A stretch of 64,000 nt of DNA from Candidatus Microgenomates bacterium (GTDB taxonomy: Bacteria > Patescibacteriota > Microgenomatia > Daviesbacterales > UBA10151). The position numbers and the translations under genes are program-made. The stretch is taken from assembly GCA_016182045.1 (NCBI GenBank), contig JACOYE010000009.1, positions 1,328-65,327 on the forward strand, given 5' to 3'. Below, piece after piece: positions 9,382 to 34,909 of this stretch. Numbering within the stretch: the stretch's first letter is position 1; each line of letters opens with the position of its first letter. A model generated the notes under the pieces. It was not told the DNA's origin and did not search any database. It was given only the letters and a program-made list of their open reading frames with translations.

Positions 9382-11481
9382 ATGCTTATCCGAATTGCAG
9401 TATTTTTACTAACCTTTGTTTTTTTATTAACCCCTATTCAAACCGCATTCGCAGACACTGTTACATTTAGCACTCCAGTCAATATCTCTAATACCCCTGG
9501 TCCATCAGAATTTCCAGCTCTCGCCGTCGATAAAAATGGCACAGCTCATGTTTTCTGGGTAGAAAGACATCAAGGATCGGTTTGGGACTACTCGCAAGCA
9601 AAAATTTTTTATGCGACAAAAACCGAGGATGATCCTTGGAGTGAACCTATTGCAATGTCTGGAGTCACGGTAGCTCAATATCTGCCTGTACCGGCTGTTG
9701 ACGAAAACGGTACTATCCATGTGGTTTGGAGGGCGCTAGATACCCAACTCCTCCAATCTGGTATGTTTTACGCAAAAAAGCCTAGGGGCGGCAGTTGGAG
9801 TGAACCAACAATAATTCCAGGCACCGTTGAAATTCCTAACTCCATTACAGACCCGGGTGGCCTTGCAGTTGATGAGAGTGGTACTTTACACTTGGTGTGG
9901 CACGGCGGGGATGGAGTTGATAATGGCTGGTATGCTACCAAGGCGCCTGCTGAAAACTGGACTGAACCCACCAAATTCTTAGAGGCTGCTTATTTGCCCG
10001 ATATTGTCGTGGGCCCAGACAGAACCCTTCACGTAGTCACTCACGCATTTGGCCGCATACGCTACACTACTAAACCATTAGCAGGTTCCTGGACCGACTT
10101 GGTAGAGATTCCAACTCCAATTTATCCTCAGATGCCAACTTTGGCCATCGACGCAAGTGGCAATGTACATCTTACATGGAATGATCAAGGACAAATTTCT
10201 TATATGTTCAAACCAATAGATGGTAATTGGAGTACTCCTATACAAGTATCCCTGCCACCACGCGACAACTTGGGATACCCATCGTTGCTGATGGCAGGCG
10301 AAACGCTGCATGTTGTTTGGCAGGGGTCTGTTAACATGGCTCAAATATTTTACGCCTCCAAATCCCTTCAGGGCGAATGGACTGCTCCAATCACTATTTC
10401 AACTAACCCCACGAATAAGGGTGCTGTTCAGCCGAGAATCGCCGTTGGAGGAGGCAGAGCTCACATTGTTTGGCTCGATGATTCAAGTATGTTGGGGACG
10501 CAAGACGGGCGGGAAATATTTTGGTCCACAGCTAATGTTGATACTACTTCTCCAGTCATAACTTACGCTATTACAGGAACACTAGGTAATAATGGTTGGT
10601 ATACATCTGATGTTAGTGTTTCATGGAATGTGAGTGATCCGGAATCTACAATTACCTCAACTAGTGGTTGTGATCCAAGTGCGGTCACTGCGGATACAGC
10701 AGGCATAACCTTCACCTGTAATGCTACTTCTGCCGGTGGAACAGCTTCCCAATCCGTTACAATCAAACGGGATTCGACCGCCCCCACTGTCACTGTCACC
10801 TCACCTGATAATTTTGCAGTAGTGCCAATGGGTACAACTTTAAATTTTAATGCCGATGATAATCTAAGCGCTCTTGTAAATGTTACAGGAAGCCTATCTG
10901 ACGGAACAACCATAATAAATGTCACAAATGGCTACACAATAACCCAGCCAGGTGTTTATACTCTGATAGTAGAGGCAACAGATAGTGCAGGAAATACTGC
11001 AACTGAGACCCGCTATTTCGTTGTTTATAATCCTTCCTCTGGTTTTGCATCAGGCAGTGGGGTATTTACTCCTGGTGGCCAAAGTAGTGATTTAGGTGAC
11101 AATCTTCCGGGTTTGGATAACAAAAGTCCAGCTAGGTTTGGTTTTGTTGTCAAATATAATCCGGGAGCTACAACTCCAGATGGCCAACTGGAATTCCAAT
11201 ACCGTCAGGGGAACTTTAACCTTAACTCAACCGGGGTTGATTGGTTGGTTATTGTCAACAATAATTGGGCCAAGTTTCAGGGAAACGCAACAATTAAAGG
11301 TTTAACTGGCGAATATCCTTTCAGGGTTGATGCAAGGGATGGCGATTTTGGTGGGGGGAATCAATCAGATCGTTTCATCATTAAAATTTGGTCTCCTGGT
11401 GCCAATCCTGATCTGGCAGACCCCATTTATAAAGCTTCTGGTGACCTAATGGGAGGAAACATAGTAATTCATACTCAGTAG
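9382..11481 (+). CDS. secreted repeat protein: 7-bladed beta-propeller-like region plus Ig-like (HYR/BIg-like) domain
   Basis: Signal peptide. Seven repeats of ~50 aa each end in an xHxVW motif (HVFWV, IHVVW, LHLVW, LHVVT, VHLTW, LHVVW, AHIVW). A Cys-containing Ig-like module follows (DTTSPV...SGC...FTC), then a C-terminal beta-rich region. Confidence 0.6.
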   Translation: MLIRIAVFLLTFVFLLTPIQTAFADTVTFSTPVNISNTPGPSEFPALAVDKNGTAHVFWVERHQGSVWDYSQAKIFYATKTEDDPWSEPIAMSGVTVAQYLPVPAVDENGTIHVVWRALDTQLLQSGMFYAKKPRGGSWSEPTIIPGTVEIPNSITDPGGLAVDESGTLHLVWHGGDGVDNGWYATKAPAENWTEPTKFLEAAYLPDIVVGPDRTLHVVTHAFGRIRYTTKPLAGSWTDLVEIPTPIYPQMPTLAIDASGNVHLTWNDQGQISYMFKPIDGNWSTPIQVSLPPRDNLGYPSLLMAGETLHVVWQGSVNMAQIFYASKSLQGEWTAPITISTNPTNKGAVQPRIAVGGGRAHIVWLDDSSMLGTQDGREIFWSTANVDTTSPVITYAITGTLGNNGWYTSDVSVSWNVSDPESTITSTSGCDPSAVTADTAGITFTCNATSAGGTASQSVTIKRDSTAPTVTVTSPDNFAVVPMGTTLNFNADDNLSALVNVTGSLSDGTTIINVTNGYTITQPGVYTLIVEATDSAGNTATETRYFVVYNPSSGFASGSGVFTPGGQSSDLGDNLPGLDNKSPARFGFVVKYNPGATTPDGQLEFQYRQGNFNLNSTGVDWLVIVNNNWAKFQGNATIKGLTGEYPFRVDARDGDFGGGNQSDRFIIKIWSPGANPDLADPIYKASGDLMGGNIVIHTQ

Positions 11482-11512
11482 AAAGCTCACGTCGCGAGTT
11501 TTTTTGTGGGAG
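11481..11512 (+). terminator. terminator-like element, flanking-repeat copy 2
   Basis: gaaagctcacgtcgcgagtttttttgtggg directly follows the stop codon. It is identical to copy 1 across the 18-nt GC-hairpin and T-run core. Confidence 0.55.
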
Positions 11513-11514
11513 CA

Positions 11515-11543
11515 TAGTCGAATGTATTTTCTTGTGCTATAAT
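11515..11543 (+). promoter_or_regulatory. extended -10 promoter (TGcTATAAT)
   Basis: tgctataat at 11535-11543. The -35 is weak. Confidence 0.45.
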
Positions 11544-11548
11544 CTAAC

Positions 11549-11770
11549 TATTCTTTCGGGGTTTTGTGTAAGTCAAAATCGGTGGTAAAACTCCACGATC
11601 CCGCACCGTCTGGTGCAGGAACGAACTGGTGAAAATCCAGTAGCGACCGTACAGTCGGAATGAAAGAAAGACGTCGTCCCCGCGAAAGCGGGGAACCATA
11701 AAATAATTATATGGATCCCAGACTTGATCTGGAATGACTGATGAATTTAGCCCCGAAAGGGGCTTTTTTG
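11549..11770 (+). ncRNA. orphan small RNA (~220 nt), class unknown
   Basis: Its own promoter lies upstream. It is GC-rich with multiple hairpins (GCACC-GTCT-GGTGC, ACTGG-TGAAAAT-CCAGT, CCCCGC-GAAA-GCGGGG). It ends in a canonical intrinsic terminator (AGCCCCGAAAGGGGCT plus T6 at 11749-11770). No + strand gene follows, and the minus-strand ORF over it looks spurious. Confidence 0.5.
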
Positions 11771-11898
11771 ATTCCTTCAGTCTCGAGCTTAACAATTTCT
11801 GAACGTGGTAAAATTCCAAAAGCGGTTTCTTTGAAGCTAGTTGCTGATTTAAGTTTAGTAGATTTTCTCACAGCTCAATTCTAACACAACAGTAGCTG

Positions 11899-12171
11899 TT
11901 ACCTAAAAAGAGCTCGAGCTTGTTTGCGAGAGATTTTTTCCCCTTCCAGACGCATAGTATGGTAGACATCTTCAGGAAGAAGATTTTTTACATCAGGTTT
12001 TTTACCCATATTTAAATAGCGTTTCTTAAAGGTTCTAAACGCTTGGATAAGGCTTTTGTTTTTATTCACTAATTGAATGCTGGTCATACACCTATTATAG
12101 CACTTTTTACTATTTCTAATCTGGCCTAGTGGTATAATCGAGCCTAACATATGGACGAACTCTGTCTCCAA
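11899..12171 (-). CDS. hypothetical small protein; possibly a truncated Fic N-terminal-like fragment
   Basis: The C-terminal HTMRLEGEKISRKQARALF resembles the xIEG motif of Fic-family N-terminal regions, but no Fic core follows. Low confidence. Confidence 0.25.
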   Translation of the reverse strand: METEFVHMLGSIIPLGQIRNSKKCYNRCMTSIQLVNKNKSLIQAFRTFKKRYLNMGKKPDVKNLLPEDVYHTMRLEGEKISRKQARALFR

Positions 12172-12184
12172 ACTTTTTTCTTAA

Positions 12185-12235
12185 AACGCTTGATTTTGCT
12201 GAGCACTCCGGTCAGGACCCATCCTATCGTTATAA
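12185..12235. repeat. conserved ~50-nt 3'-flank element, copy A
   Basis: ttgctgagcactccggtcaggacccatcctatcgttataacta abuts the stop codon of 12236..13006. It is about 75% identical to copy B at 13745-13797. Confidence 0.6.
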
Positions 12236-13006
12236 CTAAGTAATTAGTGACTCAAACTTTGGCACCAAGCTCTCAACTTCATTAATCATAGATTGAATTG
12301 TTTCAATTAGTATTTCTCCCTCAATAATGCCAGGCTCATTTAGAACAATATTAAATCTAAATTGCATATTTGGAATTGGTTTTGCATCTGGACCATCAAT
12401 AAAAAGCTCATCTCCAACCTTAAGTGGAAATAGTATATCTGCAGGCTTGATAAATAAAGGTATGGCAGGTACTTTCAAGTCAGGAAAAGCTTTGGTCGTT
12501 GATACTTGTAGATGTTTACCAATATCCATACTTCCAAATGAGGATCCTACCGTAACAAGTAATCGATGTTTATCAATATTATTCAGCTGAGAAATTCTCC
12601 ATAGATTAATGTTGCCTTCTTTGTATGGCTTAACTGAATCAATTATGTCTTTAGCTTGTTGTGAAATTCCTTCAGTTTTTTTAATTTTCTCTCGTTGATA
12701 ATGATCAAAATCTTGGGATATCGGAAAATAGATATGACGGCCTATGTTACCATTTCCAGAACCAATGGTGAAAAGCTGATAAGCTAAATAGTCCAAAGCA
12801 CTTCTTAAATTCTGGATGATATCTCCTGTTATAAAAGCAATCTTTTCCGGAACCTGCTCTGCTTTAACAAGATAATAAATTAAACGCTTTGATTGTGGAT
12901 CGGATTTAGTATCAATTTTGTAAGGTTGTGAATCAAAAAAAGATTTTACCTCTTTTTGCAATTCCTCTTTTAACTGCTTAGCGCGTTCAATTTTACTTGT
13001 CCACAT
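12236..13006 (-). CDS. hypothetical protein (256 aa), accessory-island gene
   Basis: Clean ORF with no recognisable family. Confidence 0.5.
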   Translation of the reverse strand: MWTSKIERAKQLKEELQKEVKSFFDSQPYKIDTKSDPQSKRLIYYLVKAEQVPEKIAFITGDIIQNLRSALDYLAYQLFTIGSGNGNIGRHIYFPISQDFDHYQREKIKKTEGISQQAKDIIDSVKPYKEGNINLWRISQLNNIDKHRLLVTVGSSFGSMDIGKHLQVSTTKAFPDLKVPAIPLFIKPADILFPLKVGDELFIDGPDAKPIPNMQFRFNIVLNEPGIIEGEILIETIQSMINEVESLVPKFESLIT

Positions 13007-13085
13007 AAATGTGATGGCTTACGATCACTTTAGGTGCCCATCTTAACTGGCACAAGTCGACTATGTGGGAACTTTTTATTCCTAT

Positions 13086-13655
13086 CTATAACTTCCATTC
13101 TTTAGTTAATTTTTTTACTAAATCCTCTATATATTGTTCTAGGGTTGTGAAATCTTTCCTTGGATTGACAATTAAGGAATATGTCTTGTCCGTATTTTCC
13201 AGATCAATTATCTTAAATCTTACCTCCCCATTTGATGACAGACTACTTCGCTTATGAGCAATAATTTCCTTTCCGTACTTTTCATCTGGATGTGCTGAAA
13301 GTCTATGCCTTTTTTCTTTTATTTCAATTATCCACTCATCAAAGACCGAAGACTTAGATAATTTTTTACCAAAATTTATACATGAAGCTATATAGGCATA
13401 CGTTGCTATTGCAGAGCTGAAAATTTTGTACTGCATATCACTATATTTAGGATGATCAGATGTAGCTAGTTCATTAAGTTGTGGAACATTATTTTCCTCA
13501 AAAACTCTTACTTGGGCTTCGGCGTAGGTTAAATAAAGATATAGAGCTGATAACAGAAATCCTCTTTTATACCATAAAAGATCTGTTTGCATTAATTTAT
13601 TAACAGATAAATAAAGAGAATTAAGATTATCGTATGTATAAGGAATATCTGGCAT
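13086..13655 (-). CDS. hypothetical protein (189 aa), accessory-island gene; possible HEPN-like Rx4-6H motif
   Basis: Clean ORF. An RHRLSAH (R-x5-H) motif sits in a predicted helical region. This is speculative. Confidence 0.45.
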   Translation of the reverse strand: MPDIPYTYDNLNSLYLSVNKLMQTDLLWYKRGFLLSALYLYLTYAEAQVRVFEENNVPQLNELATSDHPKYSDMQYKIFSSAIATYAYIASCINFGKKLSKSSVFDEWIIEIKEKRHRLSAHPDEKYGKEIIAHKRSSLSSNGEVRFKIIDLENTDKTYSLIVNPRKDFTTLEQYIEDLVKKLTKEWKL

Positions 13656-13744
13656 TTAAATTGAAGTATATCAGAAGCTAAAATTCTTTACACTTGGAAC
13701 TTAATTTAAGTTGTTACAATAGTCTAAAGTGTTAAAAAAAGCTG

Positions 13745-13797
13745 ATCGTCCAAGTTTGCTGAGCGTACCGGTCTAGGACCATTTAGTCCTATAACTA
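13745..13797. repeat. conserved ~50-nt 3'-flank element, copy B
   Basis: ttgctgagcgtaccggtctaggaccatttagtcctataacta abuts the stop codon of 13798..14394. Confidence 0.6.
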
Positions 13798-14394
13798 TTA
13801 TATCTTCTTAAGTCTTTTTATGATAGATTCGCAGATGTCTGAAAAAGTATTAGCCCAATGTTCGTTTATTTCCTCACCCTCAGATAATTCTTCATGCAAG
13901 TGGACAAAGTTTCTTAAATCTTTTATTAAATGTATTTTGTAAAATTCTTTCTCAGAAATTAGATTGTTACTTAAAGCCGCATCAAGTGCGATATCAAATT
14001 TTTCTTTTCCGGTATATTCTCTTAGCACAGCTTCGATCAGCGAACCATACAAGATAATTGTTGGTTTCCATAACCTATTTTTTAGACATACTTTTGCAGA
14101 TTTGTAATCTCGTTGAAGAAGAAGTCTCAATCTATTGTTGTTTATAAAATCAAAAGTCCTACTACCAGCAATCTTACGATAATCAATATCAGTTCTTTCA
14201 TATTGTTTCTTCATTCGATTTCTTTGAAATTCTCTGAAATTGTCTGAAACAATTTTTGCACCTGGATATTTACGTAAATAGTCAGCCTTACTCAAATCAT
14301 GTTTTTTTAACAGATGAGTGGTCATATTCGTAAATTCATTTTGGCACTCCAAACATTTAATCTTCATAGACATATTTGACAAGATCTTTCTCAA
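13798..14394 (-). CDS. MucR/Ros-like C2H2 zinc-finger protein with an unknown C-terminal domain
   Basis: The N-terminal KCLECQNEF...THLLKKH...YLRKYP matches the MucR/Ros zinc-finger signature. The C-terminal ~140 aa are unknown and contain RNFVHLH (R-x5-H). The gene starts 13 nt after the tRNA-Gln CCA end. Confidence 0.5.
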   Translation of the reverse strand: MRKILSNMSMKIKCLECQNEFTNMTTHLLKKHDLSKADYLRKYPGAKIVSDNFREFQRNRMKKQYERTDIDYRKIAGSRTFDFINNNRLRLLLQRDYKSAKVCLKNRLWKPTIILYGSLIEAVLREYTGKEKFDIALDAALSNNLISEKEFYKIHLIKDLRNFVHLHEELSEGEEINEHWANTFSDICESIIKRLKKI

Positions 14395-14406: not shown

Positions 14407-14480
14407 TGGCTGCTGGGCTTGGATTTGAACCAAGATAGATAGCTCCAGAGGCTATCGTCCTACCGTTAGACGACCCAGCA
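14407..14480 (-). tRNA. tRNA-Gln (anticodon CUG), CCA encoded
   Basis: Manual fold: acceptor stem TGCTGGG paired with CCCAGCA (U1-A72), discriminator G73 and encoded CCA; D-arm GTCT-AACGGTA-GGAC; anticodon stem ATAGC paired with GCTAT around loop CTCTGGA; T-arm CTTGG-TTCAAAT-CCAAG. Confidence 0.8.
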
Positions 14481-14984: not shown

Positions 14985-16307
14985 TCAACTTGATGATTTC
15001 TCCAGATATGCTAAAGCTTCATTTGCTCTTTTTAAAGTCTCTTCTTCCCCCAATATTTTAACACTCTCAAAAAGCGGCGGGCTAACCAATTGGCCCGAGA
15101 TAGCCACTCTGATCAACTGGAAAGTTTGGGTCGCTGAAAGTCCATGGCTTTCACCAAATTGTCTGAATGTTTTTTCAAACATATCAGCCTTCCATGGTTT
15201 CTCCATCTTTTCCATCACCTCTAACATCTCTTTCAATAACTTCACTATGTCCAACCTTTTCTTAACCACTTTTTCAAATACCTCTTGTTCGTACTCCGGT
15301 TTTTCCCAGAGAAAATCTGTCAGCGGTATGAAATCCGATAACTTCTTAATCCTCTCTTTAACAAGCGGTATAACTTTATCTAGCTCCTCATCTGCTGGAT
15401 GTTCTAGTTTTCCTTGAGAGATATCCTTCAAATATTCTAAGATTTGAGTTTTGAGTTTTGAGTTTTGAGTTTTCCTAATATATTCTCCATTCATCCATTC
15501 CAGTTTCCGGACATCAAAAATGGCAGGGGCAGTATTTAAATCTTTCAAATCAAATTCTTCTATCATCTCCGACAGAGTTAAAATTTCTTTTCCAGAGGGA
15601 GGGGTCCATCCCAAAAGCACCAGGAAATTGATCAACGCCTCTGGTAAAAATCCATCTCTTTTATAATCTAAAACACCTATGCTTCCATGTCTTTTGGAAA
15701 GTTTACTTCTATCAGTTGCTAAAATATTGGGAGAGTGGGCAAACTGCGGAATATCCCATCCAAATGATTCATACAACATGATGTGTTTTGGTGTTGATGA
15801 AATCCAGTCTTCACCACGAGTCACATGAGAAATGTTCATCAGATGATCGTCAACCACGGAGGCCAAATGATAGGTGGGATATTCATCGGATTTTAAAATT
15901 ACAAAATCTTCCACCTGCCTATTCTCAAACTTAATGCTCTTATTACCCACTAAATCAATCCAGGAAGTTGAACCCTCTTTTTTTGTCTTAAAGAAAATTG
16001 CTTCTTCCTGTTGGTAAGCTTTATCAGAATTCAATAATTGAAGTGCATGTTCTTTATAAATATCCAATCGTTCTGACTGAAGGATTACTTTCTCGTCCCA
16101 ACTCAGACCAAGCCACTTTAAGCTATCATAAATGGCACTATAACTTTCCTCAACTTCCCTTTTTTTGTCGGTATCCTCAATTCTTAAAAGAAATTTACCC
16201 CTGTTGTGTTTTGCAAAAAGATAGGTAAAAAGTGCAGTTCTCATATTACCCACATGAGGATTACCGGTAGGTGATGGTGCATATCTTACTCTAACTTCCT
16301 CAGCCAT
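14985..16307 (-). CDS. gltX: glutamate--tRNA ligase
   Basis: Class I HIGH region (APSPTGNPHVGNMRTALF) and KMSKS-like motif (KLSKRHG). Confidence 0.85.
   Translation of the reverse strand: MAEEVRVRYAPSPTGNPHVGNMRTALFTYLFAKHNRGKFLLRIEDTDKKREVEESYSAIYDSLKWLGLSWDEKVILQSERLDIYKEHALQLLNSDKAYQQEEAIFFKTKKEGSTSWIDLVGNKSIKFENRQVEDFVILKSDEYPTYHLASVVDDHLMNISHVTRGEDWISSTPKHIMLYESFGWDIPQFAHSPNILATDRSKLSKRHGSIGVLDYKRDGFLPEALINFLVLLGWTPPSGKEILTLSEMIEEFDLKDLNTAPAIFDVRKLEWMNGEYIRKTQNSKLKTQILEYLKDISQGKLEHPADEELDKVIPLVKERIKKLSDFIPLTDFLWEKPEYEQEVFEKVVKKRLDIVKLLKEMLEVMEKMEKPWKADMFEKTFRQFGESHGLSATQTFQLIRVAISGQLVSPPLFESVKILGEEETLKRANEALAYLEKSSS
15445..15473. repeat. tandem heptamer (TGAGTTT x4) inside the gltX coding sequence
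   Basis: tgagttttgagttttgagttttgagtttt. It is read through as KLKTQ... on the coding strand. Confidence 0.7.
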
Positions 16308-34548: not shown

Positions 34549-34909
34549 GTGCCTAGGAAGAGAGTAAGCCAGATTCTGTTTTCTCGCTTCGCGAAGCGAG
34601 TAGATGATCATTTATCTAATGCTCCTCATTTCGACTAGTTGGCGAGCAGCCTAAGTCGGTTCTAGGATTGCAGCGGGGAGGATTGCCCTTCGACTCGTCC
34701 CGATTACATCGGGACTCGCTCAGGGCTATAGCCCTTTGCTTATCGAATACCCTGTGGCTTGATCGTTTCACTCGGCGCCACCCGAATCGTCACTGTTGCT
34801 CTATACTCGCGGTCACCCGGTCTCGCCTTGCGGCGGACACCCTACTCTTTGCTGTCTGGACTTTCCTGTCCCGATTTAATCGGGACCGATCATCCTTCTT
34901 CCTAGGCTT
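34549..34909 (-). ncRNA. rnpB: RNase P RNA (bacterial type A-like)
   Basis: On the minus strand: P1 AGCCTAGGAAGA paired with TCTTCCTAGGC; P2 GATGATC with GATCATC; P3 hairpin GGTCCCGATTAAATCGGGAC; universally conserved ACAGGAAAGTCCAGAC (P4 5' strand); CAACAGTGA (J11/12-like); P4 3' strand CTAGAACCGACTTAG. A TATAAT -10 sits just upstream. The overlapping + strand ORF 34668-34967 is spurious. Confidence 0.8.
34583..34600. repeat. perfect GC palindrome CTCGCTTCGCGAAGCGAG embedded in rnpB
   Basis: It lies between the P2 3' strand and the P1 3' strand of the RNase P RNA and belongs to the same repeat family as the coding-region insertions. Confidence 0.6.

Follow-up and report, generated by a model that had tools for sequence, protein, structure and literature searches.

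An FMN riboswitch leader with no gene behind it, probably stranded by a deletion, in a Candidatus Microgenomates bacterium

Within a 64,000-nt stretch of a Candidatus Microgenomates genome (contig JACOYE010000009.1; the window, to which all unlabelled coordinates refer), we found a self-contained promoter-aptamer-terminator unit that is, with hardly any room for doubt, an FMN (vitamin B2) riboswitch leader with a terminator/antiterminator platform. The element belongs to an already known riboswitch class, and it is its gene-less state that is unusual. Taken as a whole, the evidence makes it likely that the leader was stranded by a deletion and is now a relic that has not yet decayed, most likely non-functional because it no longer controls any riboflavin gene. 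A previous sequence-only reading of the same DNA had described an orphan sRNA of about 220 nt and had judged a cis-acting riboswitch unlikely because no gene follows; the absence of a gene was borne out, but the argument failed on the identity of the element, which is a cis-regulatory leader whose regulated genes have very probably been deleted.

When the whole window was scanned with Rfam cmscan, the + strand gave a match to RF00050 (FMN riboswitch) of 86.7 bits (E 2.3e-18; gathering score 66.2 bits) that covered model positions 1-138 of 138. In a permissive scan of 11400-12400, no other Rfam family had an E value below 0.2. This check, which the sequence-only reading had itself suggested, thus assigned a known cis-regulatory family, but it brought no overlooked downstream gene to light. 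The motif GGTGAAAATCCAG (11628-11640), previously said to recall the core of cobalamin riboswitches, is actually the P5 stem and loop of the FMN riboswitch in the cmscan alignment. In an alignment of 13 aptamers, using a structure derived from the window's own fold, which somewhat favours the window, 93.2% of cells were paired and 13 pairs were altered on both sides, a value that none of 500 shuffles equalled, and pairing was far lower when the structure was slid by 1-3 columns. The transcript 11548-11775 folded at -79.2 kcal/mol (z = -4.1), and 0 of 200 dinucleotide shuffles were equally stable, in agreement with the structured transcript of about 220 nt described before. Like known FMN riboswitches, or RFN elements (the Bacillus subtilis ribD leader; the F. 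nucleatum impX aptamer, PDB 3F2Q), the element has a six-helix aptamer with conserved junctions. We consider it vanishingly improbable that it is instead a structured sRNA of a new class, whether 6S-like or not: only the presence of a promoter and a terminator speaks for this, while the RF00050 match is full-length and well above the gathering score, the homologous leaders of relatives precede riboflavin genes, and the permissive scan returned no competing family. The 6S-like class proposed earlier is ruled out by the RF00050 match. The - strand ORF at 11544-11819 was rightly taken to be spurious: it runs antisense to the aptamer, and the one similarity it shows elsewhere is to the opposite strand of the aptamer in a relative (L008). 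The features of the locus are collected in Table 1.

Table 1. Features of the leader and of the deletion junction in the window
Feature	Position	Strand	Basis
Hairpin CTCACGTCGCGAG + T7, directly 5′ of the promoter, after the stop codon of the 699-aa gene	11486-11505	+	Sequence
Extended -10 promoter, TGcTATAAT	11535-11543	+	Aligns with the GTGnTATAnT promoters of relatives' ribE leaders
FMN riboswitch aptamer, helices P1 to P6	11548-11675	+	cmscan and covariation
P1 5′ strand and J1/2, UUCUUUCGGGGUU, doubling as predicted antiterminator 5′ strand	11551-11563	+	Pairs with 11749-11761 in the minimum-energy fold
A where relatives have G; first J6/1 nucleotide, G98 equivalent	11659	+	Alignment and cmscan mismatch
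Expression-platform spacer with three hairpins (11678-11693 CCCCGCGAAAGCGGGG, 11696-11714, 11718-11732)	11676-11748	+	Folds
Intrinsic terminator, AGCCCC-GAAA-GGGGCT + T-run	11749-11769	+	Sequence and terminator scan
Putative deletion junction, GGGCTTTTTT (~10 nt) common to the leader terminator and the antisense of fic codons 35-38	11760-11769		Homology switch
Truncated fic, first 37 codons only	11761-11871	-	26/37 residues identical to the L099 Fic N-terminus
Intact 62-aa fic partner gene, motif T-M-R-L-E-G	11899-12087	-	51/62 residues identical to the L099 protein, 85% nucleotide identity

The promoter and the terminator given in the sequence-only reading were both confirmed. The extended -10 element TGCTATAAT has no -35 match and was therefore not listed by our promoter scan; it aligns with the extended -10 elements of five ribE leaders of relatives (TTTTTTTGTGCTATAAT in L099, GTGGTATACT in L008 and L097, GTGATATACT in L101). 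Judging from its position, transcription would start at about 11550, some 7 nt past the -10 element, at the first aptamer nucleotides. A hairpin with T7 likewise lies 5′ of the promoter in L008, L089, L095, L097, L099 and L101. At the other end of the unit, the stem AGCCCCGAAAGGGGCT (11749-11764) and its T6 run (11764-11769) were found both by reading the sequence and in the terminator scan. The 73-nt spacer between aptamer and terminator had no homologue among the relatives, whose spacers are variable and 45-105 nt long. Its first hairpin resembles the terminator hairpin CCCCGAAAGGGG but lacks a T-run and is absent from relatives; it might be a degenerate duplicate, or a co-transcriptional decoy partner for the 5′ segment CUUUCGGGG.

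That 5′ segment had been described as complementary to the 5′ half of the terminator stem. The alternative fold stood, and it is kept in five other leaders, although the coordinates were one base off, CTTTCGGGG lying at 11553-11561. Between 11551-11563 and the 5′ half of the terminator, 12 contiguous pairs are possible. In silico, the fold with the antiterminator (-79.2 kcal/mol) lies only 1.7 kcal/mol below that with aptamer plus terminator (-77.5 kcal/mol), and the two folds are likewise nearly equal in L090. In all six terminator-type leaders (the window and five others), the 5′ segment (UUCUUUCGGGGnn) can form 9-12 contiguous pairs with the terminator 5′ half and loop, with one covarying pair: L101 has GGGG-A with U-CCCC, where the others have U with A or G. 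In these modelled folds, the alternative pairing depends on P1 and is the predicted antiterminator of an ordinary transcription-attenuating riboswitch. We infer that the window leader is still transcribed from its conserved extended -10 promoter as an RNA of about 220 nt, binds FMN and terminates as follows. With FMN bound, P1 (UUCUUUC/GAAAGAA) would close, the CCCC-GAAA-GGGG hairpin would form, and transcription would stop at about 11769. When FMN is lacking, the 5′ UUCUUUCGGGGUU would pair with AGCCCCGAAAGG, the terminator would be blocked, and read-through RNA antisense to a fic stump and its 62-aa partner gene would be made. In known FMN riboswitches that act by transcription termination, such as the B. 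subtilis ribD leader, P1 formation likewise lets the terminator form; unlike in these, the antiterminator of the window would use the P1 5′ strand over a long range (~190 nt) and not a local segment.

We compared the leader with those of related genomes, here given by L numbers. The glutamyl-tRNA synthetase (GluRS) of the window (14985-16307, - strand) has its nearest relatives, at 53-60% identity, in Candidatus Daviesbacteria MAGs. In the closest of them, L008, the interval from rpiB to tRNA-GluRS likewise contains an FMN riboswitch (90.7 bits), identically placed and oriented, and ribE, ribH, ribA and ribD follow it directly (checked with Pfam). Promoter and aptamer of the window (11527-11671) are 77% identical to those of L008 (E 1.5e-26). 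The gene order LOG-like, Rpe, RpiB, followed by a divergent riboswitch with ribEHAD, was found in L008, L095/L096, L099 and L101, and ribEHAD occupies the same site in L009; in L012, rpiB stands directly beside the tRNA, with neither operon nor riboswitch. A scan of metagenomes with a clade-specific aptamer motif yielded seven further leaders, six of them before an EamA/DMT transporter gene and one before an ECF-type set; a flavokinase gene is often close by. One of these genomes, L089, shares the Tkt, LOG, Rpe, RpiB synteny of the window but carries an EamA gene behind the riboswitch. The same position divergent from rpiB thus holds either ribEHAD (L008, L095, L099, L101) or an EamA-type putative riboflavin transporter (L089), which suggests swapping between riboflavin making and importing within Daviesbacteria-like genomes. 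All 12 of the related leaders recovered have a gene for riboflavin synthesis or transport behind them, and a gene-less copy occurred in none of the other genomes examined. The L008 contig (CAZVEX010000002.1) is titled 'uncultured Gammaproteobacteria', a label that is probably wrong, as its gene content and synteny are Daviesbacteria-like; its RibE is identical to P0001, which is Candidatus Daviesbacteria by NCBI name.

The related leaders carry two types of expression platform. In the first (L008, L089, L091, L093, L099), a Shine-Dalgarno sequence lies within the P1 3′ strand GAAAGAAAGAAUAUG and abuts the start codon. In the second (L088, L090, L092, L094, L101 and the window), the aptamer is followed by a spacer and then by CCCC-GAAA-GGGG with a T-run. 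The start codon comes 0-2 nt after the T-run in L088, L090, L094 and L101 and about 19 nt after it in L092, while none is present in the window. The gene behind this terminator in the five relatives is an EamA gene or ribE (directly behind it in L088, L090 and L094). The 3′ half of the terminator stem (AAAGGGG) could double as a ribosome-binding site, which could combine transcriptional and translational control. Several of the related aptamers have large insertions (L097 314-521, L094 10072-10266, L101 5770-5954, and L092), in the form of additional hairpins that sit in the loop of P2 or P3 or separate J6/1 from the P1 3′ strand. Because of such insertions, L092 and L094 miss the Rfam gathering score, even though EamA genes follow them.

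In the window, by contrast with close relatives' leaders and other known FMN riboswitches, which control riboflavin genes (ribEHAD, EamA-type, ECF-type), no regulated gene follows. All genes downstream of the leader are on the - strand, and the only + strand ORF, of 47 aa (11741-11884), contains the terminator. Searches with tblastn for RibE, RibH, RibA, RibD, four EamA transporters, ECF components (ECF-S) and flavokinases gave no match in the 64-kb window, to which this absence applies, and such genes may exist elsewhere in the genome; a 120-sequence RibE profile had no match in any frame of 11660-12300. Four candidate explanations for what follows the leader were rejected. That the 47-aa ORF encodes a regulated peptide is not credible, since it matched no family, contains the terminator and is antisense to the fic stump. 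A stretch at 11783-11801 that matches codons 'SSLTIS' of L008 ribE at 18 of 19 positions was dismissed as a chance match and not a ribE stump, because the protein comparison and the RibE profile were empty and the stretch lies inside fic-homologous DNA. The segment 12196-12234 matches L008 just past ribD (0/300 shuffles) and was considered as the edge of a deletion behind ribD; it marks the edge of a variable island and not ribD, because the copy in L009 lies about 720 nt from the tRNA and far from ribD. Insertion of that island was also rejected as the cause of the gene loss, as the downstream genes would still be convergent without it.

The DNA that now follows the leader points to a deletion. 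Positions 11762-12154 of the window are 76% identical to 11785-12188 of L099 over 406 nt (E 8e-81), and the matching DNA in L099, some 2 kb past ribD, comprises the 5′ part of a fic gene on the - strand (208 aa, Pfam Fic) and its 62-aa partner. The same module is contained in L103, which stems from an unrelated sequencing project, with 80% identity to the window, but only from 11760 rightwards; at the breakpoint, L103 reads CTGGGCTTTTTTGATTCC and the window AAAGGGGCTTTTTTGATTCC. A 54-aa ORF on the - strand (11707-11871) is chimeric, consisting of Fic residues 1-37 followed by the reverse complement of the riboswitch terminator. The fic stump shows 70% nucleotide identity to L099, compared with 85% for the partner gene, and has no frameshift in its 37 codons; the partner gene is also present in L103. 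We take the motif T-M-R-L-E-G of the 62-aa protein to fit the [ST]xxxE[GN] inhibitory motif (inhibitory helix) of Fic antitoxins. The pair of fic and small partner forms a class-I-like module in the window (11761-12087, -), in L099 (11268-12123) and in L103, where fic is also pseudogene-like, with an 87-aa ORF and about 210 nt missing relative to L099.

We hold loss by deletion to be a well-founded explanation for the missing regulated genes. On the sequence at the breakpoint, the junction has the look of a microhomology-mediated deletion. One end would lie in the 3′ half or T-run of the terminator and the other at the matching GGGCTTTTTT inside the convergent fic toxin gene, so that a presumably single deletion from an L099-like ancestor would have taken out the regulated genes together with whatever lay between these and fic, as well as codon 38 and all later codons of fic. 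The junction rests on one assembly. No independent contig across it was recovered, Logan contigs with the flanking genes breaking at 11578-11589 and at 12092, and exact-product look-ups (90-, 91-, 62- and 54-aa ORFs, P0121) gave no independent confirmation; the chimeric junction ORF is identical to NCBI protein HYT18_02560 (Candidatus Microgenomates bacterium), probably from the same MAG. The leader could in principle have been wrongly joined to a fic locus from another place or strain, the real genome having a gene behind the leader. The Logan assemblies of the same samples, which break inside the aptamer and at 12092 with none spanning the junction, would fit such an artefact, as would the presence, in the same project, of related populations whose rib operons are intact (L098 and L100, from SRR12113419). 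However, the two sides share only about 10 nt, far below any assembler k-mer, which makes a false join unlikely; the Logan breaks are not at the junction itself; and the flanking order (RpiB side, riboswitch, 39-nt element, island, tRNA-Gln, GluRS) is that of L008. We therefore regard a misassembly as quite improbable and retain the deletion.

Before the deletion, the leader would have been divergent from rpiB and would have controlled genes for riboflavin supply. The lost cargo was most probably ribE-ribH-ribA-ribD and less probably an EamA-type riboflavin transporter. In favour of ribEHAD, four of the five relatives sharing the RpiB-side synteny have this operon, and the fic module lies downstream of ribD in L099. 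In favour of a transporter, L089 has an EamA gene at the same locus, and the window aptamer is 80-84% identical to transporter-linked aptamers versus 74-77% to ribE-linked ones. Aptamer signature positions separating the two kinds of cargo comprised three informative columns, too few to decide.

The aptamer itself has kept its quality. Its 86.7 bits compare with 67.5-90.7 bits for gene-linked relatives, a score equally high. A decayed riboswitch, one of three classes put forward in the sequence-only reading, was accordingly the closest of the three, but the aptamer is not decayed. The conserved junction stretches CGGGG, CGG, CGA, GA, GCGAC and AUG are all present, with one exception, in which the window also departs from known FMN riboswitches: the G98 equivalent is A. 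No other near-invariant core column shows a change peculiar to the window (at this one, 11 relatives have G and one has T). A11659 mismatches an upper-case consensus G in cmscan and is the first unpaired base 3′ of P6, before the conserved A of GAUG. In the structure of the F. nucleatum FMN riboswitch, G98 is part of the floor on which the flavin stacks (bioRxiv 10.1101/389148; PMC7573352). Among the pocket nucleotides that we considered (3F2Q numbering: G10, G11, G32, A48, G62, G84, A85, G98, A99), mapped by consensus position and not by structural superposition, the A85-G98 pair would become A-A in the window. The substitution may be a first sign of decay. Variant FMN riboswitches of Clostridioides difficile (subtypes 1 and 2) similarly combine an FMN-type fold with G-to-A changes at conserved pocket positions; in these, phosphate-contacting guanosines are replaced and FMN binding is lost (PMC6298564). 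However, the C. difficile variants change the phosphate- or ribityl-contacting G10, G11, G32, G62 and G84, which the window keeps, only its G98 equivalent being different, and they are linked to efflux genes, whereas the window offers one example with no associated gene.

The surroundings of the leader gave several further observations. An element of about 39 nt, TTATAACGAyA..ATGGGTCyTgACCGG...GCTCAGCAA, occurs in the window (12196-12234), L008 (13225-13263) and L009 (12896-12941). Its conservation spans three genomes whose GluRS proteins share just 59-60% identity, and it always lies at the far edge of the variable block beside tRNA-Gln; it had no Rfam match, and might serve as a recombination site or represent a small RNA. 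The block itself (12236-14394, -) has a GC content of 0.30-0.35, against about 0.40-0.45 around it, and adjoins tRNA-Gln(CTG) at 14407-14480. Its genes of 256, 189 and 198 aa matched no Pfam, NCBIfam or PADLOC family, save for weak ROS_MUCR and DUF4145 matches in the 198-aa protein. In L008, the surroundings of the same tRNA include an Mrr-type nuclease and a 79-aa ORF, read here as GIY-YIG-like. The block beside tRNA-Gln looks like a variable, defence-type island hotspot. On the other side of the riboswitch, a + strand gene (9382-11481) encodes a 699-aa protein with weak matches that indicate a PDIAV-lipoprotein-like N-terminus, an Ig-like/PKD-like middle and a post-COAP-1 C-terminus; the protein is probably secreted or surface-located. 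This gene, probably an insertion, separates rpiB from the riboswitch promoter; the corresponding interval in relatives is only 250-530 nt long or is taken up by a small glutaredoxin-like gene. A class A RNase P RNA was found at 34549-34905 (-), with 107.3 bits against a gathering score of 100 and large internal deletions in the cmscan alignment, which fits a CPR lineage whose RNase P RNA is reduced.

An intact aptamer, promoter and two-state platform could mean that the deletion is very recent, or that selection continues for some function. In the latter case, the FMN riboswitch would have been kept as a free-standing flavin sensor, acting either as FMN-gated antisense over the toxin-antitoxin remnant and the defence-type island or as a trans-acting 220-nt RNA, for which we see a small chance. 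As an antisense regulator, the leader would allow read-through, gated by FMN, against the 62-aa partner gene and the convergent island genes, and so make the expression of these genes dependent on flavin status. The genes beyond the terminator (fic stump, 62-aa gene, island genes) are indeed all convergent, though this is a matter of geometry, the platform has two folds of nearly equal energy, and promoter and aptamer are fully preserved. However, this geometry arises automatically once a gene block between two convergent units is deleted, and the arrangement was seen in no second genome. Moreover, the toxin that would be neutralised by the 62-aa protein has itself been destroyed, which leaves no obvious benefit, and the change at the G98 equivalent argues against strong selection on the sensor. 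Re-use as an antisense regulator is thus unlikely in our judgement. Two known systems are comparable: in Listeria AspocR (B12) and in the Clostridium acetobutylicum S-box antisense to the ubiG operon, a riboswitch also faces convergent genes and read-through produces antisense RNA. In the window, by comparison, the convergence would be a by-product of deletion, and antisense RNA would be directed at the partner of a toxin that has been destroyed.

The other form of re-use would be a riboswitch-derived trans-acting sRNA or FMN-binding RNA, the terminated 220-nt transcript working elsewhere, through base pairing or by sequestering a factor. Terminated riboswitch transcripts that act in trans are known from Listeria (SreA/SreB, SAM; Rli55, AdoCbl) and Enterococcus (EutX, AdoCbl). 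Like these, the window unit is discrete, with a strong promoter and a terminator of its own, would give a short ligand-responsive transcript, and has no coding sequence directly under its control; it is also highly structured (z = -4.1). However, SreA/SreB, Rli55 and EutX are conserved and have demonstrated targets, whereas the window unit occurs in one genome with a visible deletion scar. Every structural feature of it is already explained by the cis-regulatory design of its gene-linked relatives, and the gene-less copy is conserved in no other genome examined. A trans-acting role, to which nothing points although it had been among the classes first proposed, is thus very unlikely.

We therefore return to the stranded leader, whose loss of function would follow from the loss of its genes. 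As regards mechanism and ALTERNATIVES, we think it probable that the leader is transcribed but purposeless, with antisense read-through when FMN is lacking. A literature search for riboswitches that lack a gene or survive as remnants, and for any riboswitch of CPR bacteria, brought up no relevant work; the term 'orphan riboswitch' refers in the literature to an unknown ligand, not to a missing gene.

These results remove a false lead, as the supposed orphan sRNA is a known riboswitch class. The base-level breakpoint would document how a riboswitch leader was stranded by a microhomology deletion during CPR genome reduction, and such deletions would yield promoter-aptamer-terminator units from which riboswitch-derived sRNAs could evolve; should the leader after all be a free-standing sensor, it would show, in a CPR bacterium with a reduced genome, a riboswitch on its way to becoming a regulatory sRNA. 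Within one clade, the homologous riboswitches at a single locus are followed in some genomes by a biosynthesis operon and in others by an uptake gene, and the leaders have a platform made either by a Shine-Dalgarno sequence inside P1 or by a terminator. In the organism studied here, flavin synthesis or flavin uptake was probably lost at this locus, which bears on its vitamin dependence on partner cells.
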